Shown: positions 1-23,232, counted from the stretch's first letter. The stretch is DNA of 64,000 bases from an uncultured Planctomycetales bacterium (GCA_964438075.1 CAYTIW010000007.1:1-64000); one strand, 5' to 3'. Translations and numbers: made by a program. The notes: generated from the sequence alone by a model not told the origin.

Positions 1-3000
1 GTGAACTGGGAAGACGTGGAGGCGTTGACGAAGACGGGAGTGAATTGGACGGATATAGAGGTTATAAGCAAGACGGGTATTAACTGGACAGATCTGGAAA
101 ATATTTCCAAAACAGGAATAAATTGGGCTGATTTGAATGCTTTGACTTTGGCAGGGATAAACTGGACCGATATTGAAACAATCTCCAAGACTGGTATCAA
201 TTGGACGGACCTCGAGGTCATGACGGTCGAAGGAGTTAATTGGAGCGATATAAACAAATTAAGTGATACCGGCATAAATTGGGCTGATATCGATGTGCTG
301 AGCAGAACCGGCATTAATTGGTTGGATATTGAATCCATGAGTAATAGAGGAATTAACTGGTACGATCTAAGTGCTTTGTCTACAACAGGTATTAATTGGC
401 TGGATATTGAAGTCATATCTGATACTGGAATTAATTGGATGGATGTGGCGTCTCTATCGAGTTCCGGAATAAATTGGAATGACATGGAGATGTTTTCCAA
501 TGCCGGGATCAATTGGTCCGATCTAGAGTCAATGACCCGGACAGGTGTGAATTGGACCGATCTGCAAATTATGAGCAACTCCGGGATCAACTGGAACGAT
601 TTAGACATAATGAGTACGGTGAGTGTTAACTGGACGGACATAGCTACGTTGTCATCGAGTGGAGTGAATTGGACGGATATCGAAGCGCTTTCCACGACCG
701 GCATAAATTGGTCCGACTTGAACGCCATGACTTTGGCTGGAGTTAATTGGGCAGATATTGAGGCGTTATCCCACACAGGTATCAATTGGTTAGACCTGGG
801 AACGATGACCTTGTCAGGTGTAAACTGGGATGACATCAATTCTATGACGTTAGCCGGGGTTAATTGGAGCGACATTGAAACGATCTCCCAAGCGGGTATT
901 AACTGGACTGATATAGAAACCTGGACCAAAGCGGGCATAAATTGGACAGATTTTGAAACTATGACCGTGTCTGGAATTAATTGGGATGATCTGCAGGAAG
1001 CCACAAATTCGGCGGTAAATTGGACTGATATCCAGGCACTCTCCTTGGCTGGTATCAATTGGATAGATTTTGGTAGTCTGTCTAATGCGGCTATTAACTG
1101 GACGGATTTGGAGGCAATGACGAAAGAAGGTATTAATTGGACGGATGTGAGTGCTTTATCGAATATAGGTATGAACTGGTCTGATCTGCAATCGATGACC
1201 ATCTCCGCTATTAATTGGGCAGATATGGTGACTATGAGTAGTGCTGAAATCAATTGGGAAGACCTGGCGGTCATGAGTTCGACTGGATTGAATTGGGAAG
1301 ATATCGGCATTTTAAGCGCCGCCGGAGTTAATTGGTCGGATCTGGATATCATGAGCAGAAGCGAGATCAACTGGTCTGATCTATCGGTGCTGACTTCTTC
1401 GGCTATCAATTGGATGGACATGGAAGTTCTATCGAAGAGCGGCTTGAACTGGGCCGATCTGGAATCTATGACGGTTGCAGGTGTGAATTGGACGGATATT
1501 GAAGCATTGAGTAAGACTGGGGTTAATTGGATTGATATCGAACGGCTATCAAGCAGTGACATAAATTGGGAGGATATCGAACGCATATCAACTTCATCCA
1601 TAAACTGGACAGATATAGAACAATTATCTGTTTCGGGAATCAATTGGGCCGATATGGCCACCCTGAGCGCATCAGAGATCAACTGGGCAGATATAGCCGC
1701 CATGTCTTCGGAAGCTGTGAATTGGCTGGATTTGGAAGTATTGAGTAAGACGGGTGTAAATTGGGCCGACTGGGAGGCGATGACCGTTGCTGGTGTAAAT
1801 TGGACGGATATGGAAGCAATATCCAAAGCGGCGATCAACTGGACCGATCTGGAGACCATGACCGTCACTGGGGTAAATTGGATGGATCTGGAATCAATTT
1901 CCAAGACGGGTATCAACTGGTCAGATCTAAACGCCATGACCGTCGCTGGGGTGAATTGGACGGACATGGAAGTTTTAAGCAAGTCGGCGGTAAATTGGAT
2001 GGATATGCAGACACTTTCATCAGCAGCCATTAACTGGGTTGATATGAGTGCGATGTCGTTAGCGGGAGTCAATTGGACAGATTTGGAAATTCTGTCAGAA
2101 CAAGGTGTGAATTGGATCGACATTGAAACACTTAGTACGGCAGGTATAAATTGGGAAGATATACAGTCGCTTACAACTTCCTCTATTAACTGGGGGGATA
2201 TTGAAGTTATAAGCAAGACGGGAGTTAATTGGGAAGATATATCCGCCTTGAGTTCAACTGGAGTTAACTGGACCGATCTGCAGTCAATGACGATGGCAGG
2301 TGTAAATTGGACGGATTTGGAGACCATTTCCAAGACGGAAATAAACTGGATGGATTTGTCTGCCATGACCCTGTCCGGGGTCAATTGGAACGATATTTCC
2401 GCTATGAGTGCGAACGGAGTTAACTGGACCGACTTGCAGTCGATGAGCATGGCGGGGGTCAATTGGACAGATATGGAGTACCTTACCACTGCAGAGGTCA
2501 ATTGGTCGGATCTGGGAACTTTGAGCAACGCTGGTATTAATTGGTTGGATATAGATTCTTTAAGCAATACCGGCATTAACTGGTCAGATATCAATATCAT
2601 GTCTGATGCCGGAGTTAATTGGTCGGACATTGCTTACCTTACCTCATCGAATGTGAACTGGACCGACCTCGAATCCCTAACCAAAACCTCTGTAAATTGG
2701 GCTGACCTCGAGTCCATCACCAAGGCAGCTATCAACTGGACCGACCTGGAATCCATGACCAAGGCTTCCGTCAACTGGACCGACCTCGCAGCATTAACAG
2801 TCACGGGTGTTAATTGGGCGGACATAGAAGCCATTTCAAAATCCGCGATCAACTGGACCGATCTACAGTCAATGACGATGGCCGGTGTAAATTGGACCGA
2901 TCTCGGCGCTATGACATTGACGGGAATTAATTGGGACGATATGCAGGTTCTGCATGAAAATGGGGTTAACTGGGACGACTTGGCGTTCATGAGCCGCGCT

Positions 3001-6000
3001 GATGTTAACTGGACCGATCTGAGCGTTCTGACCGATGCCGGGGTCAACTGGACAGACATGGAGACCTTGTCCCACAGTAATCTTAATTGGTCAGATCTGG
3101 AAGTGATGACCAACGCCGCAGTTAATTGGGCCGACTGGTCCTCTATCAGCACCTCGGCTATAAATTGGGGTGATATGAACACACTGACCTCATCAGCTAT
3201 TAATTGGTCCTCTCTGGGAGATATGACCATCAGCGGAATTAACTGGTCTAGTTTCTCTGACATGACCGTGAGCGGGATAAACTGGACCGACATCGGAACC
3301 ATGACCGACTCGGGTGTGAATTGGGAAGACATCGGCATTATGAGCTCTGCCGGAGTGAACTGGACAGATATGGAGAAAATGTCCCTGACAGGGATCAACT
3401 GGAGCGATATCCAGTCCATGAGCGATACGGGTATCAATTGGACCGACCTCGGTGCCATGGCCGCGGCAGGTGTTAATTGGTACGATATGGAATATATGAG
3501 CGATGCCGGTATTAACTGGATGGACATTGAAACCTTGACGAATAGAGGGATCAATTGGGTTGATATCGAATCTTTATCACTAGCCGGTATCAACTGGTCG
3601 GATATTGGTACTATGAGCAGTTCTGGTGTCAACTGGACGGATCTGCAGACTTTAACTGAGACAGGTGTTAACTGGGATGACCTGCAGTCTCTGACTTTTG
3701 CGGGAGTGAATTGGAGCGATCTCGGCTCCTTAAGTACCTCTAGTGTAAATTGGGCTGACCTGGTTTCGATGACTCAAAATGGCGTTAACTGGACCGACTT
3801 GTCGGTGATGTCTGATGCCGGAGTCAATTGGTCCGATTTCTCTGTCTGGACGGCTGCCGGGGTCAACTGGGATGATTTCGCCGTATTGACAGATTCAGGC
3901 ATCAATTGGAACGATTTGGAAATGATGAGCGAATCATCATTGAACTGGGCCGATCTGGCGTCTATGACCCTCAATGGTGTGAATTGGGCTGATCTCTCCA
4001 CATTGAGCGAAGCGGGCGTTAATTGGACCGACCTGTCTGTAATGAACTCTATGGGTGTAAATTGGGCTGACCTGAATGCTATGACAACTGCGTCGGTAAA
4101 TTGGGAAAGTTTGGAAGTGTTGACCAAGACCGATATCAATTGGGATGACCTGCAGACTATGACTGTTTCAGGAGTTAATTGGATGGACCTTGCGACAATG
4201 TCCGATGCCGGTGTGAACTGGATCGATATAGAGTCCATGAGTAAGGCTGATGTTAATTGGACCGGCATCGAATATCTATCCCAGGCAGGCGTGAATTGGG
4301 ATGATCTCTCAGTATTGAGTGACTCAAGTGTGAACTGGATGGATATGGAATACATGAGTAAAGCTGCGGTTAACTGGACCGACCTCATGCAGATGAGCGT
4401 TTCCGGAGTCAATTGGCTGGACCTGGGCGATATGACAGGGGCAGGGGTTAACTGGAGTGATATCAACGCCATGACTTCGGCCGGTGTGAATTGGACTGAA
4501 CTCCAATCCATGTCCGAGACCGGTGTGAATTGGGATGACCTGTCGGCCCTGACTTCGGCAGGTGTTAATTGGGTTGATCTGGAGGCGATGACAGTGTCCG
4601 GGGTGAACTGGACCGACCTCATGCAGATGAGCGTTTCCGGAGTCAATTGGCTGGATCTGGGCGATATGACAGGGGCGGATGTTAACTGGAGCGATATCAG
4701 TACTCTCTCTGCCGCCGGTATTAATTGGGACGACATCACTACCCTCAGTACGGTCGGGGTCAACTGGGCGGACCTTTCGACCATGTCTTCGGCGGGAGTG
4801 AACTGGTATGATGTTGGTTCTTTGTCTTTAGCTGGTGTCAATTGGGAATATTTCGAAGAGTTCTCTACGGCAGGTGTCAATTGGGATGACTTGTCCATAT
4901 TGAGTTCTGCAGGGGTCAACTGGACCGACCTCAATTCGATGACTTCGGCTTCGGTGAATTGGGAAGGTTTGGAGATATTGACCAAGACCGATATCAATTG
5001 GGATAATTTCGGGGCGATGACAACTGCCGGTACGAATTGGGATGCGTTCTCGTTCATGACCACGGCCGGCGTCAACTGGGATGAATTAGCTTCAATAACA
5101 TATACCGGTGTCAACTGGGATGACCTGCAATCGTTGACCGATGCTGGAATTAATTGGAATGACCTGCAGTATATGACCTCTACAGCTGTCAATTGGACCG
5201 GTCTGGAGGCGATTTCAAACACTACTGTGAACTGGGAAGATCTCGCCTCTATGACCTCGGCGGGAGTGAATTGGAATAGTCTGGAATTTATGTCCAGCGC
5301 CGGGATCAACTGGTCCGATTTCGAGTCCTTGACCAATAAGGGTATAAATTGGGATGACATCAGCAAAATGGCCAGTTCGACTATCAATTGGTCAGATTTC
5401 GAGAACCTGACCGAAGCCGGAATAAATTGGGATGGATTAAGTGTCATGTCAGAAACGGCTATCAATTGGGATGACCTTATGGCTTTGAGTGTATCGGGCA
5501 TCAATTGGCTCGATTTTGCATATTTGTCTCAAGCCGGGGTCAATTGGGAAGATATCGAGAGCATGACAGTAGCTGGTGCTAACTGGGAAGACCTGACGAT
5601 GATGGGCAGTGCGGGCATCAATTGGGATGCCCTGTCCTATATGTCCGCCGCCAATGTGAACTGGGATAGTTTGCAATCATTGTCCGTGGCTCAGATGAAC
5701 TGGCAGGGACTGAGTGACATCTCTCTCGCTGGTGTAAATTGGGAGAACATCGGCGATATGTCCAGAGATGGGGTCAATTGGCTTGACGTAGGGGCATTAT
5801 CCGAAGCGGGTATCAACTGGTCGGATTTCACTCAACTGACGAACACCGGTATCAACTGGGAAGATGTAAGGACTTTGAGCGAAACCGGTATTAATTGGAA
5901 CAGCATCGGCGAAATGGCAGAGGCGGGTATCAATTGGCAGGGCATCTACACCTTGAGCTATGCGGACATTAACTGGGAGGGGATCGGTGATATGTCCACC

Positions 6001-6390
6001 AGTGGTATTAATTGGCTGGATATCGGCCTGCTTTCCCAGGCCGGGGTCAACTGGGCTGAGATCGCAACGATGTCGTATGCGGACTTGAATTGGGATGAGA
6101 TAGCGGTAATGACGGATAGCGGGATCAACTGGTATAGCATAGGCGATATGACAGCTTCGCAGATCAACTGGAACGACGTGGCGGTTATTTTTGAATCCAG
6201 TATCAATTGGGATGATCTGAGTGTGATGTCTACCCGAGAGGTGAACTGGGCTGACGTCACTGTTATGACCACTTCCGATGTTAACTGGGGTGACGTGGGT
6301 GGTTTCTCCACGACCGGTGTCAATTGGGCAGATATGGCCAGGATGACCCATTCTAATATAGACTGGAGAGAAATGAGTTATTTCTCTGCC
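1..6390 (+). repeat. In-frame 39-bp (13-codon) tandem repeat array with diverged copies
   Basis: AAYTGG (Asn-Trp) recurs every 39 nt from base 4 to about 6365. Copies differ at many synonymous and non-synonymous positions. A local 26-aa super-period alternates ..[IL]SK[TS]G.. with ..MT[VLM][AS]G.. units. Confidence 0.9.
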
Positions 6391-7083
6391 AATGCCAGGA
6401 CCTTGGTTTCGAATATCCAGGATATATTCGATAATATCGGAAGCGATCCCACAACGACTGACCAAACGACCTTGTTCGGCAAGATCAACCGGATGATCAC
6501 CGCTATCAACGATGTTGATATCAATACGATCGTCAGCATATTGGGAACAGCTGCGGATACCAAAGCTTCCAATACTATCTTTGGAGATCTTAATGCGGTC
6601 CAAGCGGCTATAGGTGATCCCAGCACCAGCAGCACTGTTTTCGAGCAAATGGATGTCATTCAGGACTTTGCCAAGAAAGGCAAGGACAGCGCCGATGCCG
6701 CTTTAGGGGTCACCAAGAATATAGAAAGCGATCTGGGGGTTTTTGGCCAGACCCCGACGACATATGAGAAACTCAGGCAGCTGGAGGATTATATCAAGAA
6801 TATTCAGCAGGCTGCGCTGGAATTGGGACCAAAACAGGAAGCCACGAGCGCGGTTGCCGATCAACTGGTAGAAATGGTACGTCAGATAATCAATGAACAG
6901 GCAAAGCAGGTCGGCTTGGAGACGACCGGGATGATGATAGAGAAACTCTCCAAACAGCAGTCCGAAGATGTCGAAAAGATCAACGAGAAGCTGGAAGAGA
7001 TCGATGCCAAGATCAGGGCTTTGCAGGAAGCTATGAAAGCCGATGACGTCGTTATCAAGACCTGGTTTGAAAGTGAGGAGTAA
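1..7083 (+). CDS. Giant tandem-repeat protein with its N-terminus cut by the window edge (2360 aa visible). About 160 consecutive 13-aa units G-[VI]-N-W-x-D-[LIM]-x-x-[LM]-[ST]-x-x, then a ~250-aa non-repeat helical C-terminal domain. Function unknown.
   Basis: One open frame runs from base 1 to TAA at 7081-7083, and it is already open at base 1, so the true start lies upstream. The translation is almost pure 13-aa periodicity (TGVNWTDIEVISK, TGINWTDLENISK ...) with invariant N-W and a D two residues after W. The last recognisable unit is near aa 2110 (SNIDWREMSYFSA). It is followed by a D/E/K/Q-rich tail ending IKTWFESEE. I recognise no family. Confidence 0.85.
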   Translation: MNWEDVEALTKTGVNWTDIEVISKTGINWTDLENISKTGINWADLNALTLAGINWTDIETISKTGINWTDLEVMTVEGVNWSDINKLSDTGINWADIDVLSRTGINWLDIESMSNRGINWYDLSALSTTGINWLDIEVISDTGINWMDVASLSSSGINWNDMEMFSNAGINWSDLESMTRTGVNWTDLQIMSNSGINWNDLDIMSTVSVNWTDIATLSSSGVNWTDIEALSTTGINWSDLNAMTLAGVNWADIEALSHTGINWLDLGTMTLSGVNWDDINSMTLAGVNWSDIETISQAGINWTDIETWTKAGINWTDFETMTVSGINWDDLQEATNSAVNWTDIQALSLAGINWIDFGSLSNAAINWTDLEAMTKEGINWTDVSALSNIGMNWSDLQSMTISAINWADMVTMSSAEINWEDLAVMSSTGLNWEDIGILSAAGVNWSDLDIMSRSEINWSDLSVLTSSAINWMDMEVLSKSGLNWADLESMTVAGVNWTDIEALSKTGVNWIDIERLSSSDINWEDIERISTSSINWTDIEQLSVSGINWADMATLSASEINWADIAAMSSEAVNWLDLEVLSKTGVNWADWEAMTVAGVNWTDMEAISKAAINWTDLETMTVTGVNWMDLESISKTGINWSDLNAMTVAGVNWTDMEVLSKSAVNWMDMQTLSSAAINWVDMSAMSLAGVNWTDLEILSEQGVNWIDIETLSTAGINWEDIQSLTTSSINWGDIEVISKTGVNWEDISALSSTGVNWTDLQSMTMAGVNWTDLETISKTEINWMDLSAMTLSGVNWNDISAMSANGVNWTDLQSMSMAGVNWTDMEYLTTAEVNWSDLGTLSNAGINWLDIDSLSNTGINWSDINIMSDAGVNWSDIAYLTSSNVNWTDLESLTKTSVNWADLESITKAAINWTDLESMTKASVNWTDLAALTVTGVNWADIEAISKSAINWTDLQSMTMAGVNWTDLGAMTLTGINWDDMQVLHENGVNWDDLAFMSRADVNWTDLSVLTDAGVNWTDMETLSHSNLNWSDLEVMTNAAVNWADWSSISTSAINWGDMNTLTSSAINWSSLGDMTISGINWSSFSDMTVSGINWTDIGTMTDSGVNWEDIGIMSSAGVNWTDMEKMSLTGINWSDIQSMSDTGINWTDLGAMAAAGVNWYDMEYMSDAGINWMDIETLTNRGINWVDIESLSLAGINWSDIGTMSSSGVNWTDLQTLTETGVNWDDLQSLTFAGVNWSDLGSLSTSSVNWADLVSMTQNGVNWTDLSVMSDAGVNWSDFSVWTAAGVNWDDFAVLTDSGINWNDLEMMSESSLNWADLASMTLNGVNWADLSTLSEAGVNWTDLSVMNSMGVNWADLNAMTTASVNWESLEVLTKTDINWDDLQTMTVSGVNWMDLATMSDAGVNWIDIESMSKADVNWTGIEYLSQAGVNWDDLSVLSDSSVNWMDMEYMSKAAVNWTDLMQMSVSGVNWLDLGDMTGAGVNWSDINAMTSAGVNWTELQSMSETGVNWDDLSALTSAGVNWVDLEAMTVSGVNWTDLMQMSVSGVNWLDLGDMTGADVNWSDISTLSAAGINWDDITTLSTVGVNWADLSTMSSAGVNWYDVGSLSLAGVNWEYFEEFSTAGVNWDDLSILSSAGVNWTDLNSMTSASVNWEGLEILTKTDINWDNFGAMTTAGTNWDAFSFMTTAGVNWDELASITYTGVNWDDLQSLTDAGINWNDLQYMTSTAVNWTGLEAISNTTVNWEDLASMTSAGVNWNSLEFMSSAGINWSDFESLTNKGINWDDISKMASSTINWSDFENLTEAGINWDGLSVMSETAINWDDLMALSVSGINWLDFAYLSQAGVNWEDIESMTVAGANWEDLTMMGSAGINWDALSYMSAANVNWDSLQSLSVAQMNWQGLSDISLAGVNWENIGDMSRDGVNWLDVGALSEAGINWSDFTQLTNTGINWEDVRTLSETGINWNSIGEMAEAGINWQGIYTLSYADINWEGIGDMSTSGINWLDIGLLSQAGVNWAEIATMSYADLNWDEIAVMTDSGINWYSIGDMTASQINWNDVAVIFESSINWDDLSVMSTREVNWADVTVMTTSDVNWGDVGGFSTTGVNWADMARMTHSNIDWREMSYFSANARTLVSNIQDIFDNIGSDPTTTDQTTLFGKINRMITAINDVDINTIVSILGTAADTKASNTIFGDLNAVQAAIGDPSTSSTVFEQMDVIQDFAKKGKDSADAALGVTKNIESDLGVFGQTPTTYEKLRQLEDYIKNIQQAALELGPKQEATSAVADQLVEMVRQIINEQAKQVGLETTGMMIEKLSKQQSEDVEKINEKLEEIDAKIRALQEAMKADDVVIKTWFESEE

Positions 7084-7086: not shown

Positions 7087-8433
7087 ATGGTGGGACAGGG
7101 GCGTGGTTTTAAATTCCCGGTCCGGCGGATCGTTGCTCTGTGGTCTTTTGTTCTGTATCTTTTTTTATCCCTGCCTGTCTTCTCGGATGTTGTGATCAAC
7201 GTGTTGGCTGTTAACGGTTCCGACAAGACGATCGAGAAAGATATCCAGTTCAGTCTTCCAGGGGAGATCACGCCCCCTGACCTGGTAGACGCGGCAGGGC
7301 TGAATTTGGACTATAATTTTAATGATTCTGGATACTATTTGCATGGCAAAGTATCTTTGCAGGCCAAGGAAACGAAGACCCTGCGCGTAAAGATACGCGA
7401 TGTTTGGCAATTATCCGACCAGGATGTAAATGCCATCAGGACCGAGATCGAGCAAGGCTTCAAGGAGATGGGCGCCGAACGTAACAAGGATAATGGAGAG
7501 CTATTAAGGAAAAAGCTGGTTGATAAACTGGAGTATATCTTAGCCGACCAAGCCCAGAACGCGGAGAACGTTGAAACACGCATCGATACTTATCGTAATC
7601 ATATCCAGACGCTGAATGAAATAAGGTCCCAAGCCAGGGCCATTGATTATTGGCGTTCGGATGCCAAGGAACCAGAGAACAATAAGACTGTTTATTACAA
7701 AGTTTTGGTTGAGAACCCCGGCGATAAGACCAGGAAGGTGAAGCAGCATCATTATCTGCCGAAAGAGGTCCTGCCGGAATATATTATCGACCGCAAAGGG
7801 TACGAGATACGTTTTGATGACAAAAAAAATCGGCCCTTTCTCTTTAAAGAAGAGGACATAGCTTCGAAGGAAAAAAAAGAAGTAAGTTTTGCTATCAGAG
7901 ACAAATGGTATATTCCTCAGAACGAAATAAGCTATGTACGTGAAAGGGCCAAATATGTAAATGATATCCTGGCCAAGTCCAAATATGTGGAGACCTCGCG
8001 GGGGCTTTTTAATAATATCACTAATTACCTGGACTTGATCGATATGCTGCAGAAGATCGAGCAGCCGGATATTCAGCAACATATCGGGGCTTATCGGCTT
8101 AATGAGGACCGGTTCGAGAAGGCCAAATCTGATCTGGATGATATAGAAAAGCTGCTTTCGCGCCACCGGGCCGAACTGGAGAAGAGCAAGGTCAAGAATG
8201 TCTTGCAGAAGATACAGTCCATGAAATCGCTGGCGCGTGTTTCTCAGGCGATTTTTGACAAGAAACCGACCGTGAATGCCGCTTGGAAGATAATCGGCAG
8301 CGTGCTGATCTTCTTAGGTATTTTTTCTATCATACATTTTGCGACTTGGTTTGCGCGTTCCTCGCGTGAAAGAAAACAGGAGCTTTTAAAAGAGGCAGAG
8401 GCTCAAGCGCATTCGCAGACCAAATCTGGATAA
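7087..8433 (+). CDS. Bitopic or secreted-and-anchored protein with two internally duplicated beta-rich modules and helical spacers. Function unknown.
   Basis: The ATG lies 4 nt after the preceding stop. There is an N-terminal hydrophobic signal/anchor (IVALWSFVLYLFLSLPVFS) and a C-terminal TM (AAWKIIGSVLIFLGIFSIIHFATWF). aa 34-107 and aa 201-274 align to each other (N.G(S)DKT, LP.E, both ending IRD[VK]W). Confidence 0.7.
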   Translation: MVGQGRGFKFPVRRIVALWSFVLYLFLSLPVFSDVVINVLAVNGSDKTIEKDIQFSLPGEITPPDLVDAAGLNLDYNFNDSGYYLHGKVSLQAKETKTLRVKIRDVWQLSDQDVNAIRTEIEQGFKEMGAERNKDNGELLRKKLVDKLEYILADQAQNAENVETRIDTYRNHIQTLNEIRSQARAIDYWRSDAKEPENNKTVYYKVLVENPGDKTRKVKQHHYLPKEVLPEYIIDRKGYEIRFDDKKNRPFLFKEEDIASKEKKEVSFAIRDKWYIPQNEISYVRERAKYVNDILAKSKYVETSRGLFNNITNYLDLIDMLQKIEQPDIQQHIGAYRLNEDRFEKAKSDLDDIEKLLSRHRAELEKSKVKNVLQKIQSMKSLARVSQAIFDKKPTVNAAWKIIGSVLIFLGIFSIIHFATWFARSSRERKQELLKEAEAQAHSQTKSG

Positions 8434-9978: not shown

Positions 9979-10248
9979 ATGCCACCATTATATAAGGGGA
10001 ATTTCCGTTGCGTGATCTTGAGCGCCAAGCGTTTGGTATTTGAGGCTGAGATAAACAGCCTTTTTATTACCGGTGATAGGGGAGAGTATGAGCTTTTGGC
10101 ATATCATTATCCTCTTATCGGTATCGTTAAAGGCGATATTGTGATCAATTGGGAAAAACGTTTGCCGGTAAGGGGCGGGGTGGTGCGGTTCTTCGCTAAT
10201 GAATGCAATGTCATGATCGAAGAAGCCCCAGCTCAGAAAACCAACTGA
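9979..10248 (+). CDS. atpC: F1 epsilon-subunit-like protein with the beta-sandwich domain only
   Basis: 89 aa. GEYELLAYHYPLIGIVKGDIVI ... VRGGVVRFFANECNVMIEEA matches the epsilon N-terminal domain pattern (EG.GIL.GH.P....L..G.+.+ ... VSGGF.EV..N.VTILA). The C-terminal two-helix hairpin is absent. Confidence 0.6.
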   Translation: MPPLYKGNFRCVILSAKRLVFEAEINSLFITGDRGEYELLAYHYPLIGIVKGDIVINWEKRLPVRGGVVRFFANECNVMIEEAPAQKTN

Positions 10249-10263: not shown

Positions 10264-10482
10264 ATGTTAGCTGAAACATTCATTATTATTACGGTAATGT
10301 TCATAGCTGTTATGGGGCCGAACGTCGTCATCGGTATGCTGGGCTATGCCGTGATCAAAGCGCTAAGTAGAAATCCCTCTGCCGCTTCCAAGATCTTCGG
10401 AGCGATGGTCATCATGTTGATATTCGTGGAGGCGATATCGATCGTGGCCATGATGGTGATTTTCCAACTTTTTGCGAGGTAA
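10264..10482 (+). CDS. atpE: Fo c-subunit (proteolipid) homolog
   Basis: 72-aa two-helix hairpin with polar loop SRNP (canonical R-[QN]-P) and a helix-2 carboxylate in LIFVEAISIV. Helix 1 lacks the usual GxGxGxG packing motif. Confidence 0.7.
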   Translation: MLAETFIIITVMFIAVMGPNVVIGMLGYAVIKALSRNPSAASKIFGAMVIMLIFVEAISIVAMMVIFQLFAR

Positions 10483-11498: not shown

Positions 11499-13791
<2,293 letters not shown>

Positions 13792-13793: not shown

Positions 13794-15539
13794 ATGTTGA
13801 AGTCAGCGGTAAATAAAGCAGTATGCGAAGCGCTTCTCAAAAGTACTCTTTTGGACGAGCCTAACCTCCAGAAATATGCCGCTGAGGCCCATCGGCTGAA
13901 CCAGAAGATATCCTTTTACCTCGTCCAGCAAGGCATTTTGAAGACCCCCGCCGTTCTCCGGGCCTTGGCAGAACATTTCCACTTGGATATCGTCAATCTG
14001 AAGACGGTCAATGTCGACCGTATGGCCATCGACCGGGTCCCGGTCAAGTTCGCTTCCTATTACCGATTCATGCCCTTGGCCGTGGACGGGAACCGTTTGA
14101 CAGCTGCTGTTTCGGAACCGCTGGATATACATAATCAGGACGACATACGCGCGCATTTAGGCCTGGAACCGCGTTTTGTCCTGGCCTCGCCGTGGGATAT
14201 CGATGAAGCTCTGAAGCGTTATTACGGCCTGGCTTCCGAGACCATTGACCAGATATTGACCAAGGACCCGCAGAAACGGTCGGCCTTTTCCGAAGACCGT
14301 TCTTCCAAGATAGAGGATATCGAGAAGCAGAGCGAAGACCCGTCGGTCACTAAACTGGTCAATCAGATCATTTTGGAGGCCTACCAGAAGCGGGCTACGG
14401 ATATCCACATCGAACCCTACCGTAACCGGGTCCGTTTCCGCTATCGTATCGACGGGGTTCTGCTCGATGCCAATCTCCCTCCGGAAGCAAAGCATTTTCT
14501 CCTGGCCATAATATCGCGTATAAAGATCATGGCCAACCTGACCATCACCGAGAAGCGGCTTCCCCAGGACGGGAGCGCGGTGGTACGCGTGAAGGAACAG
14601 GCCCTGGACCTGCGCGTTTCAACCATCCCCACCCAGCACGGGGAGAGCATGGTCATACGACTTTTGCCGACCACTACCACGCTGCTGGACCTGGAGAAGC
14701 TAGGGTTTAATGCCGATAATGCCAGCAAGTTCAGGGAACTGATACGCCATCCGCATGGCGTTATTTTTGTTACGGGGCCTACCGGTAGCGGAAAGACCAC
14801 CACCTTGTACGCCTGCCTGAACGAGATCAACGACCCGACCCGCAAGATCATCACTATCGAGGACCCGATAGAGTATGAGATGGAGGGGATCACTCAGATA
14901 CAGATCAACTCCGGCATCGATTTCGGTTTCGCGACCGGCTTGCGCAGCATCCTGCGGCACGATCCGGACATCCTCATGGTGGGAGAAGTGCGGGACCGGG
15001 AGACGGCCGACATCGCTATTCGTACTGCCCTGACCGGCCATTTGGTGTTCTCCTCGCTGCACACTAATGATGCCGCAACCGGGGTGACACGCTTGGTTGA
15101 TATGGGGGTGGAACCTTATCTGGTGGCCTCGAGCGTGCAAGCTTTCATTGCCCAGCGTTTGGTGAGGGTCATATGCCCGCAGTGCAAAGAGGAGGACCGC
15201 GAGCCGCTGATGGAGATAAGGAAGGAGATAGCCAGGAGTTTAGGTTTCTCCTCGCTGGATGAAATAAAATTCTTCAAGGGCCGGGGCTGTGACCAATGCA
15301 ACAATACGGGTTATTATGGCCGTACGGCTATTTATGAAATATTGGAGATAACCGAAGCCATCCGCTCCGCGATCCTGGACAAGCCGAGGGCGGAAGAGAT
15401 AAAACGCATAGCCGTACACGGAGGGATGCGCACGCTGCGGCAGGACGGCTGGAAGAACGTTATAGCCGGTGTTACCACTCCGGCCGAGGTCTTGAACGTA
15501 ACGCTTAAGGAGACGGCTGGGGCATCCTCCGCGGTCTAG
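13794..15539 (+). CDS. gspE: Type II secretion / type IV pilus assembly ATPase (GspE/PilB family)
   Basis: The ATG lies 2 nt after the atpD stop. N-terminal T2SSE_N-like domain, Walker A GPTGSGKTT, Walker B/Asp box DILMVGEVRD, and a tetracysteine CPQC...CDQC. Confidence 0.9.
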   Translation: MLKSAVNKAVCEALLKSTLLDEPNLQKYAAEAHRLNQKISFYLVQQGILKTPAVLRALAEHFHLDIVNLKTVNVDRMAIDRVPVKFASYYRFMPLAVDGNRLTAAVSEPLDIHNQDDIRAHLGLEPRFVLASPWDIDEALKRYYGLASETIDQILTKDPQKRSAFSEDRSSKIEDIEKQSEDPSVTKLVNQIILEAYQKRATDIHIEPYRNRVRFRYRIDGVLLDANLPPEAKHFLLAIISRIKIMANLTITEKRLPQDGSAVVRVKEQALDLRVSTIPTQHGESMVIRLLPTTTTLLDLEKLGFNADNASKFRELIRHPHGVIFVTGPTGSGKTTTLYACLNEINDPTRKIITIEDPIEYEMEGITQIQINSGIDFGFATGLRSILRHDPDILMVGEVRDRETADIAIRTALTGHLVFSSLHTNDAATGVTRLVDMGVEPYLVASSVQAFIAQRLVRVICPQCKEEDREPLMEIRKEIARSLGFSSLDEIKFFKGRGCDQCNNTGYYGRTAIYEILEITEAIRSAILDKPRAEEIKRIAVHGGMRTLRQDGWKNVIAGVTTPAEVLNVTLKETAGASSAV

Positions 15540-15634
15540 TGCCTTTTTGCCCATTTTTACTTCAGCCCCCTGTCCTGGTGTTTTGCATCGTTGGGATCGT
15601 TCGATGACTCTAAATAATGAAAGGGGCCGGTCCC

Positions 15635-16846
15635 ATGCCGGTTTTTGCCTATAAAGCCAAAAAAGACAATGCTGAGACGGTCCTGGGCGATATCGTGGCC
15701 CGGGATGCCAACGAGGCTATCGAGATGGTCAGCCGTCGCGGTCTCTTGCCGGTCGCCGTTGAAGAGAAGGAAGGAGAGGGTGCGGCATCTGTATTGGGAT
15801 TGTCTGCCGGAAATGTCCGTCGAAAAGACATCATGGTGTTCACGGGGCAGTTGGTGAGCTTGCTGAAGGCCGGGGTCCCTCTTCTGCAATCGATAGAACT
15901 GTTGTCAAGGAAGACACGCAACGCCAAACTAGCCTATGTTCTGTCCGATATCGCGCTGAACATACGCAACGGCAAAACTTTCTCCGCAGGACTGGAGGAT
16001 CATCCGGATATCTTTGAGCCCCTGTATACGGCTATGGCCCGGGCGGGTGAGGAAGGCGGGAGCATTCGGGAAATGCTGGCTGAGATGGCTGATTATTATC
16101 GCAAGCAGGAAGATATCGCCCTAAAGGTCCGCGGCGCGCTGACTTACCCGGCGGTCATGTTGGTAGCCGGTATCGGCACGGTCATTTTTGTGCTTACTTT
16201 CGTGCTGCCTAAGATCAAGGTGCTTTTCAAGGATATGCATACGGCGCTCCCCTTGCCAACGGTGATAGTACTCAAGTTGAGCGAGATGGTGCAGAATGGG
16301 TGGCCCGTGATCCTGGCTATTGCGGTCCTGGGCGCTTTATCATGGCAATCCCTCCGTCGCATGGCAGCTTTCCGGAGGGCCGTTGGCCAGGTCATTTTTG
16401 CCTTGCCATGGGTAAGGGAGTTTGCCTTGAAAATAGAGATGCAGAGGTTCACCAGGACCATGAGCTTCCTGCTGGAAGGCGGCATCCCTATATTGCGGGC
16501 TTTGGAGCTGGCCATCCCGACACTGTCAAATGAAACTTTGAAGGATGACCTGGGCAAGTGCAAAGATATGATAGCGGACGGCGCCACCTTTGGGGACACG
16601 CTAAGACGTTCCGTTCTCATACCTGATATAGTGCCGTCATTGGTAGCGGTAGGGGAAGAGGCCGGCGCGCTCGCACAATCACTCAGGGATATAGCGGAGA
16701 CTTACGAGCAGGAGATCGGCGAAAGCACCAAGGCCATGTCGACCCTGCTGGAACCGCTCCTGATTCTCCTGGTGGGATCGGTGATAGCCTTCATTGTTTT
16801 TGCTATGTTGATGCCTATATTTCAGATGGATATTTTCGCCCAATGA
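15635..16846 (+). CDS. gspF: Type II secretion / T4P platform protein (GspF/PilC family)
   Basis: I chose the MPVFAYKAKK start (ATG 15635, AAAGGGG about 9 nt upstream) over the ORF-track start at 15617. It has the typical GspF layout with two repeated cytoplasmic domains and three TM segments, and ends LLMPIFQMD. Confidence 0.88.
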   Translation: MPVFAYKAKKDNAETVLGDIVARDANEAIEMVSRRGLLPVAVEEKEGEGAASVLGLSAGNVRRKDIMVFTGQLVSLLKAGVPLLQSIELLSRKTRNAKLAYVLSDIALNIRNGKTFSAGLEDHPDIFEPLYTAMARAGEEGGSIREMLAEMADYYRKQEDIALKVRGALTYPAVMLVAGIGTVIFVLTFVLPKIKVLFKDMHTALPLPTVIVLKLSEMVQNGWPVILAIAVLGALSWQSLRRMAAFRRAVGQVIFALPWVREFALKIEMQRFTRTMSFLLEGGIPILRALELAIPTLSNETLKDDLGKCKDMIADGATFGDTLRRSVLIPDIVPSLVAVGEEAGALAQSLRDIAETYEQEIGESTKAMSTLLEPLLILLVGSVIAFIVFAMLMPIFQMDIFAQ

Positions 16847-17685
16847 CCCTGACATGGAAGTTCATAGCGCCGGTGGCCGTGTTATGGTTAGTTATGGTTA
16901 TGGGCCCCGCGCGGGCCGTTGAAGAGCCATTTCGTGAACTTAAGGGCGATCATTTTATTGTCAAATATTTGCTTGAGGATGAACGCAGCCGGGCTGTCCA
17001 GATATTAACCCGCGCGGAGTTATATTATAAGAGGGTGGCTGAAAGTATCGGTTATAACCGTTACCAGGAATACTGGACTTGGGAACGGCGCGTGACCGTA
17101 GTTCTTTATCCTGACCAACTGTCCTACGCCAAGTTCACCGGACAGCCACAGTGGTCCAAGGGGTATGCCAGCCGGGATTCCAAACTGTTCAGGACCAAGG
17201 TGATCGTTTCCTATGATGGCCAGCCTGAATTCCTGGAGGAGATATTGCCGCATGAGATCGCACATTTGATCCTGTGGGATTTTCTCGGATTTACCCGTAA
17301 GGTGCCGATATGGTTCGAGGAGGGCTTGGCCCAGCGGGAGGAGGATGGCAAGAGAGCCGTTGTGCAGCAGGCCATGAAGGAAGTTGTCATTTCCGGGAAC
17401 GATATCCCTTTTGCCACCTTCCATGGACTGGATGTGGGCAGGATCACGGACCCGGTGCAGGTTTCATTGTTCTATGCCCAAAGTCTCTCGGTGGTGGAGT
17501 TCATGATCGGTAAATACGGCCGTGATGCTTTCAGGAACTTTTGTCGTGAGATACGGGAAGGCCGGGCGTTCGAGGAGGCTTTGCCCCGCGCCTACCCGGC
17601 CATCTTTCGGACGGTGGATGATCTGGGATCGAAATGGAAGAATTATATGCAGAATGAAGTTGTTTCTTCAGGAGGCGGGCTATGA
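16843..17685 (+). CDS. Secreted HExxH zinc metallopeptidase-like protein (Peptidase_MA_2-like)
   Basis: ATGA-type 4-nt overlaps with both gspF (upstream) and gspG (downstream). Signal peptide VAVLWLVMVMGPARA, HEIAHL, then WFEEGLAQ as the third-ligand Glu context. Confidence 0.6.
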   Translation: MTLTWKFIAPVAVLWLVMVMGPARAVEEPFRELKGDHFIVKYLLEDERSRAVQILTRAELYYKRVAESIGYNRYQEYWTWERRVTVVLYPDQLSYAKFTGQPQWSKGYASRDSKLFRTKVIVSYDGQPEFLEEILPHEIAHLILWDFLGFTRKVPIWFEEGLAQREEDGKRAVVQQAMKEVVISGNDIPFATFHGLDVGRITDPVQVSLFYAQSLSVVEFMIGKYGRDAFRNFCREIREGRAFEEALPRAYPAIFRTVDDLGSKWKNYMQNEVVSSGGGL

Positions 17686-18089
17686 ATAACAGCAGAGGGT
17701 TCACGCTGGCAGAGATAATGCTGGTGGTCATCATAATAGGGGCCTTGGCGGCCATGGTCGTCCCCCGCTTGTCCGGCCGGTCCGAACAGGCCCGTATCGC
17801 CGTAGCCAAGGCGGATATAAAGACCAACATCCCTACCGCTTTAAAAATGTACGAGTTGGACAACGGAATGTATCCAACTACAGAGCAGGGTCTCCAGGCT
17901 CTCCGGGAAAAACCATCGTCCGCCCCGGCCCCCAGGTATTGGCACGGGCCTTATTTGGAACAGGATCCGGTGGACCCTTGGGGTAATCCTTACTTTTACG
18001 AATCACCGGGGACCCATCGCTCAGATTACGACTTATATTCCAAAGGCAAGGACCAGAATTCTCCCGATGGTTACATCACCAACTGGTAA
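17682..18089 (+). CDS. gspG: Major type II secretion pseudopilin GspG
   Basis: Prepilin leader MNNSRG|FTLAEIMLVVIIIGALAAMVVP with Glu+5. The GspG signature is LDNGMYPTTEQGLQAL...GPYL...DPWGNPYFYESPG...YDLYSKGKD. Confidence 0.9.
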   Translation: MNNSRGFTLAEIMLVVIIIGALAAMVVPRLSGRSEQARIAVAKADIKTNIPTALKMYELDNGMYPTTEQGLQALREKPSSAPAPRYWHGPYLEQDPVDPWGNPYFYESPGTHRSDYDLYSKGKDQNSPDGYITNW

Positions 18090-19148: not shown

Positions 19149-19149
19149 T

Positions 19150-20178: not shown

Positions 20179-20244
20179 ATCAGTTTTGGGTTGATTGACG
20201 GAAAAAGCTTAGTCTATAATGTAGCCATCAAATGCGGAGAAAAC

Positions 20245-21744
20245 ATGAAGCTTAAGCGGTCGCGATTCGTCAGCATAGCCATAAGTGCGACTTCGGTAAA
20301 GGTCGCTCTGATCAAAAGTTCAGGTTCCGTCGAGAGACTGGTAATCCGTAATATCGACAAGGGCAGTCCCGACAGCGCGCTGCAATCTGCTCTCACCGGC
20401 CTGCCAGTGAAAGGCGCGGATATCCTTTGTGTGATCCCGGGTGAGGTGGCGACTACCAAGAACTTGGAGATCCCCTCAGTCGATCATGAAGAAATTGAAT
20501 CTATCCTGGCCCTGCAGGCCTCCCGGCATACTCCTTTCAACAAAGACGAGATATTGACCTCTTATATCAAACTCGGCAACCCGAGATCAAATTTTACCCG
20601 GGTATTAATGATCGTTGTCAAACGGGACACCGTGAAAGATAAACTGGCTATCATCAAGCGCGCCGGTCTCAATATCAGCACGGTCATGTTCGTGCCTGAG
20701 GGCGTTGCGCGTTTTTATGCCGCGGCTCTCAAGGTGAAGAAGAACGATCTGCCGCTTGCGATAGTCGATGTCGGACTGCAGAACACGAATTTCATGATCG
20801 AATCGCAATCCACGATCGTGATGTCACGCAATATACCCATTGGCATTCAGCAATTTGGCACCGACACTGAAGCGTCCAACTTTCTGGTCAAAGAGATCAA
20901 GGCCTCCATGGATACTTATGAACAGGAGTCCGTCGACCGCAAGCCGGGACGTTTTATCCTTACTTCTAAACATGTGGCCTTGTCCGGGTTGGAGACGCAC
21001 ATCGCGGCCATTATGCCCGGCGCCCGTTGCGAAATCGTACCCTACCAGAATTTAGTGAAGTCAGGCAAGGAGGTTAAAGAAGTACTGGCGAAGAGTTTTT
21101 CCGATGATTCCGCGCTGGACGTCATCGCTCCGGCGGTGGTGGCGGCGAAATGTCAGGCCGAACTGGTCCCGCAGGATATCAAGGACCAGCGGGCGATCGT
21201 TGAAAAGGGACGGGCGACCTATATAGCGGGTGTGCTGATCACGCTTTTGTTGCTTTCGGTAGGAGGGGCTGTGATGAGCAAACTTTATTACAAGGATACT
21301 TTCCTGAAAAGGAACCTGATCGCCAAGTACGCCTCCCAAAAGCAGGAAGTCAAGGACATCGAGACTTTGATGCGCAAGACCAAGATCCTGCGTGAATATA
21401 TGCAGACCCGCGACATAGCGCTGGAATCTATCCGTGAACTCTATCGGCTCACTCCACCGGAGATCTATTTCAATAACATCAGCCTGGATGAGGCTGACGG
21501 CAGTGTTTCGATCCAGGGGATAGCCGATGACATGTCGAACGTGTTTTCCTTCGTGCCCGCACTTGAGGCGTCCGCATTGTTCGAGGGAGTTAAGACCAAG
21601 TCCACTTCGACGAAGAAAGACCGTGAAAAGACCGTGGCGGCATTCGAGATCGTGATGCAGTTGAGCAACCCCGACGGCAGAACAAAAGCCAAGCCGGTGA
21701 GTGAGGCGTCGGCTTCACCGGCGAAAACTGAGAAGGCAAAATAA
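20245..21744 (+). CDS. PilM-like actin-fold domain fused to a TM plus PilN-like periplasmic domain (functional GspL analog)
   Basis: Start taken at MKLKRSRFVSIAIS (GGAGA upstream). The N-terminal ~330 aa are PilM-like, there is a single TM (YIAGVLITLLLLSVGGAVM), and a PilN/GspL-like C-terminal region follows. Confidence 0.65.
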   Translation: MKLKRSRFVSIAISATSVKVALIKSSGSVERLVIRNIDKGSPDSALQSALTGLPVKGADILCVIPGEVATTKNLEIPSVDHEEIESILALQASRHTPFNKDEILTSYIKLGNPRSNFTRVLMIVVKRDTVKDKLAIIKRAGLNISTVMFVPEGVARFYAAALKVKKNDLPLAIVDVGLQNTNFMIESQSTIVMSRNIPIGIQQFGTDTEASNFLVKEIKASMDTYEQESVDRKPGRFILTSKHVALSGLETHIAAIMPGARCEIVPYQNLVKSGKEVKEVLAKSFSDDSALDVIAPAVVAAKCQAELVPQDIKDQRAIVEKGRATYIAGVLITLLLLSVGGAVMSKLYYKDTFLKRNLIAKYASQKQEVKDIETLMRKTKILREYMQTRDIALESIRELYRLTPPEIYFNNISLDEADGSVSIQGIADDMSNVFSFVPALEASALFEGVKTKSTSTKKDREKTVAAFEIVMQLSNPDGRTKAKPVSEASASPAKTEKAK

Positions 21745-21755: not shown

Positions 21756-22391
21756 TTGATCAATAATTTTATATCCGGACTGAAACCGGGCCAAAGGAAG
21801 GTGCTGGCGGTCCTGGCCGTTGTGCTCATATTGGGCCTGTTCGGGGGCATATTCCTTTATCCGGCTTGGAAAAGTTCGAACAAGATCGACGAATTGATCG
21901 CCAAGGAAAAGGAGACCGTCCGTAAGAACGCCCTTTTCTTGGCGAAACGCGAAAAAGCCGTGAAGGAAGCCGCGGTGTTCAAGGATTATTTCACTAAAGA
22001 TGTGCGGAGTGAAGAGGAGGTGATCGCGGACCTTCTCAAGAGGCTTTTGCAGCTGGCCAATAATTCCGGGGTGCAGGTATCTAAACTTTCCACGCCTGTG
22101 CAGGAAATGCAAAAGGATTATCTATTGTATGTGGTTTCGGCAGACTGTACGGGCACATTAGAAAACCTGACCAATTTTATCTTCGCGATAAACAACTCCC
22201 CGGAATTGATCAAGGTCTCCAAGATGCACCTGGGGAGCAGTGCGAATGCCAAGAATGCCGGAACCATACAGGCCAGTCTGACCATATCCAAGATGATCAT
22301 CGGTGCCGATCCATCCGTCGAGGCAAAGAAACTTGTACGTGTCCAGGAAAAGAAAGAAGCGGCGAAGCCCGCTGCCACATCCAAGGAATAG
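21756..22391 (+). CDS. PilO/GspM-like bitopic assembly protein
   Basis: TTG start with AAGGAG 8 nt upstream. N-terminal TM (VLAVLAVVLILGLFGGIFLY), a coiled-coil segment, then a ~90-aa globular domain. The assignment rests on architecture and position only. Confidence 0.5.
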   Translation: MINNFISGLKPGQRKVLAVLAVVLILGLFGGIFLYPAWKSSNKIDELIAKEKETVRKNALFLAKREKAVKEAAVFKDYFTKDVRSEEEVIADLLKRLLQLANNSGVQVSKLSTPVQEMQKDYLLYVVSADCTGTLENLTNFIFAINNSPELIKVSKMHLGSSANAKNAGTIQASLTISKMIIGADPSVEAKKLVRVQEKKEAAKPAATSKE

Positions 22392-22425
22392 TCTTTTAGC
22401 CGCCGGCGTTTCGCCTGTCCCCATT

Positions 22426-23232
22426 ATGTCTCCACCATCCCGGATATTAATTAAGAAATCATTCCTTGTCCGCCTGATCTTCCTCCTGGTCTATTTCTGG
22501 TCCTTGCCTTGCCCGGCGGTGGAGGTCACGAAGGAGAATCTATTCCAGCTGGCCACTTTGGCTCTCAAGGATGGGGAATATGAGCATGCGGTGGAGTTCT
22601 TCAAAAAAGCCATCGAGTTAGATCCTAAATTCATCCCGGCCTACAACAGCCTCGGCATAATTTATGAGACCTCTGGTTTAAAGGACCTTAAAGAGGCGAT
22701 CCGTTATTTCAAACTGGCCACGGAGATATCCCCGTCGTCTCAGGAGAGCTGGAACAATCTGGGCCGCGCCTATTACAGCAAAGGCGAGTTCACCCAGGCG
22801 GAAAGGGCCCTTTTGCGTTCATTGGAGCTCGATCCGGCCCAGCCGGAGGTGGAGGTCTCGTTGGGATGGATCTATCTGCTGGGCCAGTCGCGAGGTGCCG
22901 AGGCTATCAGTCATTTTGAAAAAGGCGGGGCGTATAAGGATAACCCCATGGTCTATTACGGCATGGGGCTGTCCTACCTCATCAAGGGTGAGCGTTTCAA
23001 GGTGCTTGATTCCATTACTGAGCTGCGCAAGAGAAAGAGGGAAGACCTCGCGCTCAGGCTGGAGGATATGGTAAAGAACAAGATAAAGCTGTCCTCGCAG
23101 GAGGGTACTCCGTTGATCACGGGCCTGGGGGCTGAACACTCGGCACTGAAAGAGGAACTCAAGGCGATGGGGAGATCTGATGGAGATACCGACGGAATAA
23201 AGGTGCGGTTGCGGGGGCCGATCCGGTATTGA
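22426..23232 (+). CDS. Secreted TPR-repeat protein
   Basis: Start taken at MSPPSRILIKK with hydrophobic signal LIFLLVYFWSLPCPA. Several TPR units are present (YEHAVEFFKKAIELDPKF, AYNSLGIIY, SWNNLGRAYYSKGEFTQAERALLRSLELDP). The ORF-track start at 22303 would overlap the upstream gene. Confidence 0.7.
   Translation: MSPPSRILIKKSFLVRLIFLLVYFWSLPCPAVEVTKENLFQLATLALKDGEYEHAVEFFKKAIELDPKFIPAYNSLGIIYETSGLKDLKEAIRYFKLATEISPSSQESWNNLGRAYYSKGEFTQAERALLRSLELDPAQPEVEVSLGWIYLLGQSRGAEAISHFEKGGAYKDNPMVYYGMGLSYLIKGERFKVLDSITELRKRKREDLALRLEDMVKNKIKLSSQEGTPLITGLGAEHSALKEELKAMGRSDGDTDGIKVRLRGPIRY

Follow-up and report, generated by a model that had tools for sequence, protein, structure and literature searches.

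Why should the genes of an F1-type rotary ATPase, with no gene for subunit a among them, stand between a giant repeat protein and a type II secretion system (T2SS)? This question is raised by a 64,000-nucleotide stretch of DNA, hereafter the window, deposited under the name of an uncultured Planctomycetales bacterium (GCA_964438075.1, CAYTIW010000007.1:1-64000). Its plus strand opens with genes for a giant protein built from asparagine-tryptophan (NW) repeats and for a membrane protein, here called the partner, and continues through the ATPase set into gspE and further T2SS (Gsp) genes. On balance we think it probable that the locus encodes a T2SS deploying an adhesive fiber rooted in the inner membrane, with an ATP-hydrolyzing rotary ATPase acting mechanically on that fiber. 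The identity of the locus is well supported; how it works we infer from gene content, synteny, an export signal, adhesin-anchor fusions, linkage to a secretin, intact catalytic motifs and the lack of subunit a. The best homologs of the ATPase alpha subunit and 80 related loci are almost all labelled as Candidatus Omnitrophota or Omnitrophica metagenome-assembled genomes, and the organism itself is a member of Candidatus Omnitrophota. Omnitrophota are widespread, ultra-small and probably predatory bacteria, one of which was observed in enrichment culture to attach to and kill other microbes.

The genes of the locus stay together across relatives. We used alpha to scan one genome per species, which yielded 80 loci with alpha identities of 54-91%, and searched these by tblastn with every protein of the window, counting each component among the loci whose contig reaches far enough to assess it. 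The partner was present in 77 of 77 assessable loci, the giant protein (repeats and C-terminal domain) in 67 of 69, subunit c in 78 of 78, the b-delta fusion in 74 of 75, gamma in 70 of 70 and beta in 68 of 68, followed by GspE (64/64), GspF (61/61) and GspG (59/59). The two exceptions for the giant protein, L072 (7992-12557) and L073, encode the partner and the ATPase and lack the upstream NW giant gene. All close alpha homologs examined share the synteny. The arrangement also extends to a distant 42-kb contig (L172, encoding protein P0240) whose alpha is 49% identical to that of the window. Here, genes for a GspC-like protein, a secretin, a TPR protein, two FGE-sulfatase-like proteins and an adhesin-anchor fusion run in one direction into epsilon, c, b-delta, two alpha paralogs, gamma, beta, GspE, GspF and GspG; the ATPase gene order differs, the ATPase set still lies between the anchor and gspE, and the c-ring glutamate is retained. 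The tandem alphas of this contig (15707-18635; 487 and 484 aa) both carry a GDRMTGKT P-loop, which suggests a heteromeric alpha composition. The JACPXL01 genome holds two full fiber/anchor/ATPase/Gsp copies on separate contigs (L067 and L068) with nearly identical c subunits. That the repeat protein, the partner, the ATPase and the Gsp genes are linked in function, as proposed earlier in a sequence-only reading of the window, is therefore borne out by synteny that is nearly invariant over 80 genomes and by the distant contig. The open reading frame (ORF) map likewise confirms the 19 consecutive plus-strand genes in 1-23232 and their tight junctions, with 3 nt between giant gene and partner (7083/7087), 15 nt between partner and alpha (8433/8449), 2 nt from the stop codon of beta to the ATG of gspE (13791/13794) and 4-nt overlaps on both sides of a peptidase gene (16843-16846 and 17682-17685). 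The co-directional run is real but does not end at 23232; it comprises 21 genes and reaches 25767.

The giant gene is open at the window start, which cuts its 5' end and leaves 2360 aa visible. These consist of a repeat array of 163 units of 13 aa (1..6345; this and all following features of the window lie on the plus strand unless stated otherwise) and a helical, non-repeat C-terminal domain of 245 aa (6346..7083). All 162 intervals between the 163 NW motifs measure exactly 13 residues, so the array is free of insertions and deletions, and its consensus reads G-[VI]-N-W-x-D-[LI]-x-x-[ML]-[ST]-x-[AST]. The array has neither Cys nor Pro, few Lys or Arg residues and a strongly acidic composition. 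At the DNA level the repeats have diverged, with Tandem Repeats Finder returning only patches with periods of 39, 78, 117 and 234 and 62-79% matches. Because the DNA copies have diverged and the spacing is yet strict, the register must be held by selection and is not owed to recent expansion. The C-terminal domain ends in ...DVVIKTWFESEE and is kept in homologs P0121-P0131. As assemblies are interrupted within the repeats, a homolog search with the C-terminal 300 aa of the giant brought back nothing but 11 short fragments, none of them a full-length protein. Most contigs of relatives stop inside or just past the repeat gene, and on one 1.34-Mb contig the NW gene product is 8087 aa long.

Among the 80 loci of the alpha scan, the true 5' end of the giant gene is found only in L043, where the protein starts with a Sec-type signal peptide, followed by a Laminin_G_3 domain (E = 1.8e-21), a Cys-rich region, the NW repeats and the C-terminal domain. 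It is immediately preceded, in the same orientation, by three small genes of unknown function, a gene for a TPR protein and one for a secretin (PF00263, E = 1.9e-49). Using this secretin as query in a metagenome scan, we obtained 80 loci, about 25 of which have enough downstream DNA and show the secretin, a TPR protein, variable genes and the giant gene. The giant proteins of these loci carry a signal peptide (...AxA|QY[ST]GG), a head of 300-1400 aa and NW repeats with the strict 13-residue spacing. The heads of the giants are variable, and that of L043 is lectin-like. In 64 of 162 units, the invariant repeat Asn is followed by W-[ST] and forms an N-X-S/T sequon. A convergent gene for an STT3-family oligosaccharyltransferase (843 aa) lies just past the terminator and tRNA that close the run, with glycosylation genes spanning 23288-28618, and in L128 two GT2 genes stand upstream of a GspC-like gene. 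With sequons in the repeat and genes for glycosylation next to the 3' end of the cluster, N-glycosylation of the fiber is conceivable. Antisense minus-strand ORFs of 332, 576 and 283 aa within the repeat gene (2634-6648) are almost certainly artefacts of a periodic, stop-poor repeat and not genes.

The partner (7087..8433, 448 aa) seems to provide the membrane attachment of this protein. An AlphaFold2 (AF2) model built from 51 homologs reached a predicted local distance difference test score (pLDDT) of 91.4. Model and transmembrane (TM) prediction describe a signal peptide, two tandem modules each made of a beta-sandwich and a 3-helix bundle, a long helix and, at the C-terminus, one TM helix followed by a tail of about 25 residues, with TM segments at 14-43 and 395-424 and type I topology. 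The partner matches no family in Pfam or NCBIfam and no solved structure as a relative; a profile search of 1.84 billion representatives assigned 953 members to its family. Three large members of the family are fusions, namely P0254 (2029 aa), P0240 (1851 aa) and P0272 (1167 aa), in which a signal peptide, an adhesin-like passenger, a C-terminal domain of the giant type (...VIKTWFESGS) and the partner module with its TM helix follow each other in-frame. Because such in-frame fusions exist, the C-terminus of the giant and the partner likely form one physical unit outside the cytoplasmic membrane. Together with the synteny, these features point to the partner as the inner-membrane anchor of the fiber, and we propose that the C-terminal domain is the docking domain for it. 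The pair of C-terminal domain and partner also accompanies non-NW adhesins (L161 and L174), and tandem partner paralogs are seen in some variants. L161 was considered as a variant without the ATPase and dropped, as this locus ends within the gene after the partner. In L173 (313-2268), the gene of an anchor from the partner family, which has a GGDEF domain on the cytoplasmic side, stands before an epsilon gene, and in L009 (13991-16162) a GspE ortholog ends in a C-terminal PilZ domain. These two proteins hint that in some lineages the state of the fiber and the secretion ATPase may be tied via cyclic di-GMP (c-di-GMP); in the N-terminal sequence of the window GspE MshEN domain, a c-di-GMP-binding motif is not evident by eye.

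Downstream of the ATPase set, the genes of the secretion machine follow in the order of a T2SS. Genes were assigned with Pfam and NCBIfam models, and the cutoffs given are those of the models. The series starts with a GspE/PilB-type assembly ATPase with an MshEN N-domain (13794..15539) and the platform protein GspF (15617..16846). It continues after the peptidase gene with the major pseudopilin GspG (17682..18089), an unassigned H/I-like minor pseudopilin (18067-18528), a GspJ-like one (18525-19148) and GspK (19123-20178). A GspL-like protein with a cytoplasmic PilM-like domain, a TM helix and a periplasmic PilN-like domain (20191..21744) and a GspM/PilO-like protein (21756..22391; T2SSM_b, 25.2 bits vs. 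a cutoff of 21.7) complete the series. GspG passes its equivalog cutoff (TIGR01710, 154.6 bits vs. 88.85) and has the class III cleavage motif G|FTLAE, and the minor pseudopilins carry the class III signals G|LTFVE and G|FTLAE. Most other components remain below their NCBIfam cutoffs (GspE 588/630, GspF 325/424, GspK 85/130 and GspM 39/60 bits, with GspJ weak), GspE scoring nearly equally as PilB. Pfam T2SSK_1st and T2SSM_b pass their cutoffs, and the best matches of the minor pilins, L and M are Gsp models, mostly below cutoff. The next gene encodes a TPR protein (22303..23232) with sub-cutoff best matches to PilW/Tgl-type TPR lipoproteins. Its GTG start at 22303 overlaps the preceding gene by 89 nt and the true start is probably an ATG near 22426; by inference from its matches, the protein is a possible secretin assembly factor.

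Domain searches of the 64-kb window found no secretin, prepilin peptidase, PilT or second rotary ATPase, and the machine had been called secretin-less in the sequence-only reading. This is an artefact of the window edge, because the secretin gene of relatives precedes the giant gene, within which the window starts. These upstream secretins match PF00263 with E = 1.9e-49 to 4.4e-48 and score slightly higher as PilQ (244.6 bits) than as GspD (231 bits), both below cutoff. In L128, a GspC-like gene, a weak match with 26.9 bits vs. a cutoff of 150, stands directly before the secretin. Because in relatives the giant gene is preceded by genes for a GspC-like protein and a secretin, the locus is best read as a Gsp-type operon that starts with C and D and resumes with E to M, with cargo, anchor and ATPase set apparently inserted between gspD and gspE. 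The gene between gspF and gspG, translationally coupled to both, encodes a secreted or anchored zinc metallopeptidase with a signal peptide (16843..17685; Peptidase_MA_2, HExxH). By tblastn it is present in most loci with alpha identity above about 60% and in none at or below this value. It is a clade-specific accessory. Despite its position, where a prepilin peptidase could be looked for, it is not related to that enzyme; the prepilin peptidase may be encoded elsewhere.

The ATPase set consists of alpha (8449..9915), epsilon (9979..10248), subunit c (10264..10482), a second, divergent c-like hairpin termed c' (10486..10716), a b-delta fusion (10731..11486), gamma (11499..12356; PF00231, 100 bits, also matched in NCBIfam) and beta (12367..13791). 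Alpha scores 521.6 bits with TIGR00962 (cutoff 484.45) and beta 537.9 bits with TIGR01039 (cutoff 462.85). The GDKMTGKT P-loop and the SVSRVG arginine-finger region of alpha are kept across the family. The catalytic motifs of beta, including LLFMDN, are intact, and GERxREG and the P-loops are conserved across the family. Against solved structures, alpha scores 432-478 bits to canonical F1 chains, above the M. mobile gliding ATPase, and beta scores 453 bits to canonical F1 beta vs. 341 bits to the G1-ATPase beta chain 9io5. Several peripheral parts are missing. Alpha lacks about 20 N-terminal residues that form a helix, its alignments beginning at residue 22-30 of the solved chains, and epsilon (89 aa) consists of the beta-sandwich domain only, matching the N-terminal domain of its models and missing the C-terminal helical domain. 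In the b-delta fusion, a TM helix at the N-terminus is followed by a coiled coil, and of delta/OSCP the C-terminal part alone remains (PF00213, positions 97-168 of 172), the N-terminal domain being lost; its best NCBIfam match is the alt_F1F0 b model, below cutoff. The lost parts of epsilon, delta and alpha are those used for inhibiting hydrolysis and for canonical stator attachment.

The rotor ring is retained. Subunit c is a 72-aa hairpin (PF00137, 31.3 bits vs. 24) with a conserved TM2 carboxylate (FVEA) and RNPSAA loop, and the TM2 Glu is found in all of the more than 80 orthologs except that of L072, which has Cys. The c' protein (76 aa, no Pfam match) has the TM2 Glu in most but not all orthologs and is found by tblastn only where alpha is at least about 61% identical to that of the window. 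In loci without a tblastn-detectable c', the gap from c to b-delta is 9-34 nt; in L072 and L073 a second c-like ORF occupies this gap. In contrast to the other F-type subunits, subunit a has no gene in the locus, as the sequence-only reading had stated. A domain search of the 64-kb window for PF00119 was negative, and subunit a is absent from the more than 80 loci, where there is no room for it because the span from alpha to gspE is only 4777-6177 nt throughout. The ATPase set of L172 has no subunit a either. Two window proteins were considered as a divergent subunit a and rejected, the 448-aa partner because it has one TM helix and the 76-aa ORF because it has two and is c-like. A KO entry for genome 221 that lists alpha and beta but not K02108 speaks weakly for a missing subunit a; as it also has I and K of the V/A type with A and B lacking, it is too thin to use.

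Taken together, a working scheme can be outlined for the reading we prefer. The giant fiber would reach the periplasm via Sec, and the partner would root its base in the inner membrane. The pseudopilus would then push head and stalk out through the dedicated secretin, the fiber staying tethered, so that the cell would carry an adhesive fiber to catch a host or prey cell. The ATPase would hydrolyze ATP rather than make it and transmit torque or force via the c-ring or the stator onto the anchor or the Gsp platform. Coupling to an ion gradient is not expected because the locus has no subunit a gene. Its role would parallel that of the F1-like ATPases powering Mycoplasma surface machineries. The earlier suggestion of a surface-fiber or attachment apparatus with the repeat protein as fiber fits the Sec signal peptide, the Laminin_G_3 head of L043, the adhesin-anchor fusions and the upstream secretin.

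Part of this picture has precedent. The sequence-only reading did not recognize the combination as a described system, yet it had already been described. For Omnitrophota, the co-location of type-IV-pilus-like genes with those of a non-respiratory F-type ATPase was reported by Seymour et al. 2023 (Nat Microbiol, PMC10066038). They found them in 56 of 111 Velamenicoccia species and in all classes, with the ATPase and type IVa pilus (T4aP) sets at most 10 kb apart on 57 of 66 contigs and with a 'symbiotic' alpha clade that is separate from the 'respiratory' one and clusters with Mycoplasma Type 2/3. Our locus very probably belongs to these Omnitrophota 'symbiotic F-type ATPase/type-IV-filament' loci reported genomically in 2023. 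It shares with them the phylum, the position of F-type alpha and beta directly beside type-IV-filament genes (less than 10 kb away, given the 2 nt between the beta stop and gspE) and a proposed role in host attachment. It differs in that their filament genes were assigned to a T4aP, whereas here GspG passes its cutoff and the others mostly have Gsp models as best, sub-cutoff matches. Further, alpha grouped with Mycoplasma Type 2/3 there, whereas here hidden Markov model and PDB scores, which are not a tree, favor canonical F1. The main text and searchable supplements of that paper are silent on the NW-repeat protein, the partner, the secretin and GspC of the locus, the lack of subunit a and the fact that c-ring and b-delta are kept. 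The giant genes of West-Roberts 2023 and of a 2026 preprint are of a different, multi-TM class beside Tad-like or Gsp-like loci, and the ATPase goes unmentioned. The link between ATPase and type-IV-filament was thus known since 2023, with its mechanism unexplored; new are the fiber/anchor/secretin architecture, the probable Gsp rather than T4aP character and the absence of subunit a documented beside a conserved c-ring. The adhesin-anchor-secretin architecture turns a vague published co-location into a concrete model.

Comparison with better known machines shows how far each likeness goes. The Mycoplasma Type 2/3 clusters comprise seven genes, including three unrelated X0 proteins (3 and 12 TM), and lack the subunits a, b, c and delta (Beven et al. 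2012, PMC3369863). The gliding G1-ATPase of M. mobile (PMC11864180) is an F1-like ATPase driving gliding legs, and the MIB-MIP surface system of Mycoplasma depends on an F1-like ATPase of Type 3 (PMC12994834). As in these, F1-derived alpha, beta, gamma and epsilon stand beside the surface machinery of a small host-dependent bacterium and subunit a is absent. In contrast, our locus keeps c, c' and b-delta, has no 12-TM protein and has as partner machinery a diderm T2SS with secretin. Scores with the Mycoplasma models are all below cutoff (alpha: glide_MMOB1660 391/600, MSC_0619_alpha 283/520; beta: glide_MMOB1670 414/850, MSC_0618_beta 380/570). Because this test of family membership failed, we claim only that the ATPase may work like the Mycoplasma ATPases and not that it is one of them. 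Compared with canonical F1Fo, alpha, beta and the c carboxylate are present, whereas subunit a, full delta and epsilon and the alpha N-terminal helix are not. With the T2SS the locus shares GspG and the class III pseudopilin signals and appears to share, in canonical order, a GspC-like protein, GspD (in relatives), E, F, a J-like protein, K, an L-like protein and M. It departs from the T2SS in that the gspD-gspE junction is split by the genes for cargo, anchor and rotary ATPase, a giant fiber apparently anchored in the inner membrane serves as cargo, the prepilin peptidase is not in the window and most components score below NCBI equivalog cutoffs. Operons of the N-ATPase, an alternate F1Fo, reportedly contain subunit a, AtpQ and AtpR in another gene order (Dibrova et al. 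2010). The b subunit with its delta-like C-terminal part resembles theirs, with alt_F1F0_F0_B as best b model, but scores with the alternative models are far below cutoff (alpha 490.8/750.5, beta 448.5/752, gamma 23.3/282, b 43.9/224.7; bits/cutoff) and there are no a, Q or R genes.

Several points weigh against a mechanically acting ATPase and an anchored fiber. The cytoplasmic tail of the partner is short and poorly conserved, and the physical link of the ATPase to the anchor or to Gsp proteins is one that we infer. AF2, given 10 repeats and the C-terminal domain, reached a pLDDT of 52 overall, which leaves the C-terminal domain with a model of low to moderate confidence, and about 35 across the repeats, too poor to show the repeat fold; the picture of one short helix per repeat that it gave was not used as evidence. 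Alpha and beta lie above the canonical atpA/atpD cutoffs, and canonical F1 outscored the Mycoplasma gliding subunits. The conserved c-ring carboxylate is expected of an ion-coupled rotor and unexplained by a purely mechanical one, and an a gene could lie elsewhere in the genome. At 58055-63764 (minus strand), the contig also carries a module resembling complex I or a group-4 [NiFe]-hydrogenase, with two Proton_antipo_M subunits and NuoH-, NuoK- and NuoB-like proteins. This module probably implies that the cell makes an ion gradient, and because it is present the cell would need some ATP synthase, a point that matters for the question whether an ATPase without subunit a might be the sole rotary enzyme of the cell. 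An ordinary ion-translocating F1Fo ATP synthase or pump with its a gene elsewhere, merely co-transcribed or supplying ATP or ion-motive force to the secretion system, could draw on this complex, on the conserved Glu and RNPSAA loop, on the fully intact F1 motifs and on the above-cutoff alpha and beta scores. We nevertheless regard it as rather unlikely, since an a gene occurs in none of the more than 80 loci nor in L172 despite every other subunit being there, the parts lost from epsilon, delta and the alpha N-terminus served regulation and stator attachment, and the operon always lies between fiber anchor and gspE, 2 nt from the latter in the window. The separation of the alpha clade from a 'respiratory' one (PMC10066038) points the same way, as does the 2026 preprint (bioRxiv 10.64898/2026.06.07.730766), with incomplete F1Fo in most complete genomes and V/A-type subunits in the Gorgyraeia baseline. 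The literature points to V/A-type enzymes in many of these lineages.

The interpretation of Seymour et al. (PMC10066038) is that of a type IVa pilus combined with a Mycoplasma-like F1 gliding motor on host cells, in which the pilin polymer is the extensible filament and the NW protein would be an unrelated neighboring adhesin. It is the published interpretation and agrees with the slightly higher PilQ score of the secretin, the almost equal PilB score of GspE and the presence of a PilM-like domain. Here, however, the score of the major pilin lies above the equivalog cutoff for GspG, Gsp models are the best matches (mostly sub-cutoff) for L, M and the minor pilins, a GspC-like gene precedes the secretin and the window is without PilT. 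Moreover, c and b-delta, lacking in Mycoplasma Type 2/3 (PMC3369863), are kept, all four Mycoplasma cutoffs are failed, and linkage to the ATPase is as tight for the genes of the NW protein and the anchor as for the Gsp genes, so that we consider this interpretation unlikely for the locus. That the F1-like ATPase, much like FliI/FliJ of type III secretion systems, unfolds the giant protein or gates its export is suggested by the homology of F1 and FliI (FliI/SctN models are distant matches) and by the very large cargo encoded next to it. It is very improbable, given that the cargo has a classical Sec signal peptide, that the c-ring and b-delta stator are kept though needless for an export gate, and that FliH-, FlhA- and FlhB-like partners were absent from domain searches of the window. 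Finally, the whole window is gene-dense, and the adjacency might be a by-product of a compact genome with fiber, ATPase and Gsp genes functionally unlinked. We give this almost no credence in view of a near-invariant order in 59-78 assessable genomes per component with alpha identity down to 54%, the same order in L172 at 49% despite rearranged ATPase genes and the Rosetta-stone adhesin-anchor fusions. The caveat, raised together with the original proposal, that tight spacing alone is only weak evidence for a functional link in so compact a window is thereby answered, because the order recurs across 80 species-level genomes and one genome holds two full copies.

For the T2SS-deployed, inner-membrane-rooted fiber, a more specific and speculative version can be imagined, in which the a-less F1-c-ring is an ATP-driven motor, rotary or winch-like, that works without any contact to an ion gradient. 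The c/c' ring or b-delta would grip the TM helix of the anchor within the T2SS platform and twist, reel or tension the secretin-threaded fiber, which at an estimated length of about 0.1 micrometer or more would be similar in size to a cell of roughly 0.2 micrometer or exceed it, and the c-ring Glu would have a non-transport role, e.g. gripping the partner helix. We consider this version improbable as it stands. If true, a rotary ATPase would have been recruited independently for a third time as a surface motor of bacteria, and for the first time in a diderm, with nanobacteria using it for prey seizure. More generally, a mechanical ATPase would represent a new way of powering a surface organelle and a natural experiment on a c-ring without subunit a. 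The locus is among the most conserved candidate attachment systems of the phylum and offers a rare near-complete F-type ATPase without a channel gene in a secretion operon.

The co-directional run closes with two glycosyltransferase genes, one of the PMT_2 GT-C family (23288-24949) and one of GT2 (24961-25767), both assigned by Pfam and possible members of the system. The end of the run is marked by a bidirectional, terminator-like hairpin of 16 bp (25812-25846), the only strong one of its kind in the window, followed by a minus-strand tRNA (25898-25971), which was the sole hit of an Rfam scan of the 64 kb. Further downstream, the GC content drops to about 0.395 at 52000-56000 compared with 0.50-0.56 elsewhere. 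This stretch holds four minus-strand genes, three of them without a Pfam family and one encoding a HAD hydrolase, and may be a foreign island. At 50317-52395, a patatin-like phospholipase is fused to a cyclic-nucleotide-binding domain (692 aa), possibly a regulated lipase of a predatory lifestyle.

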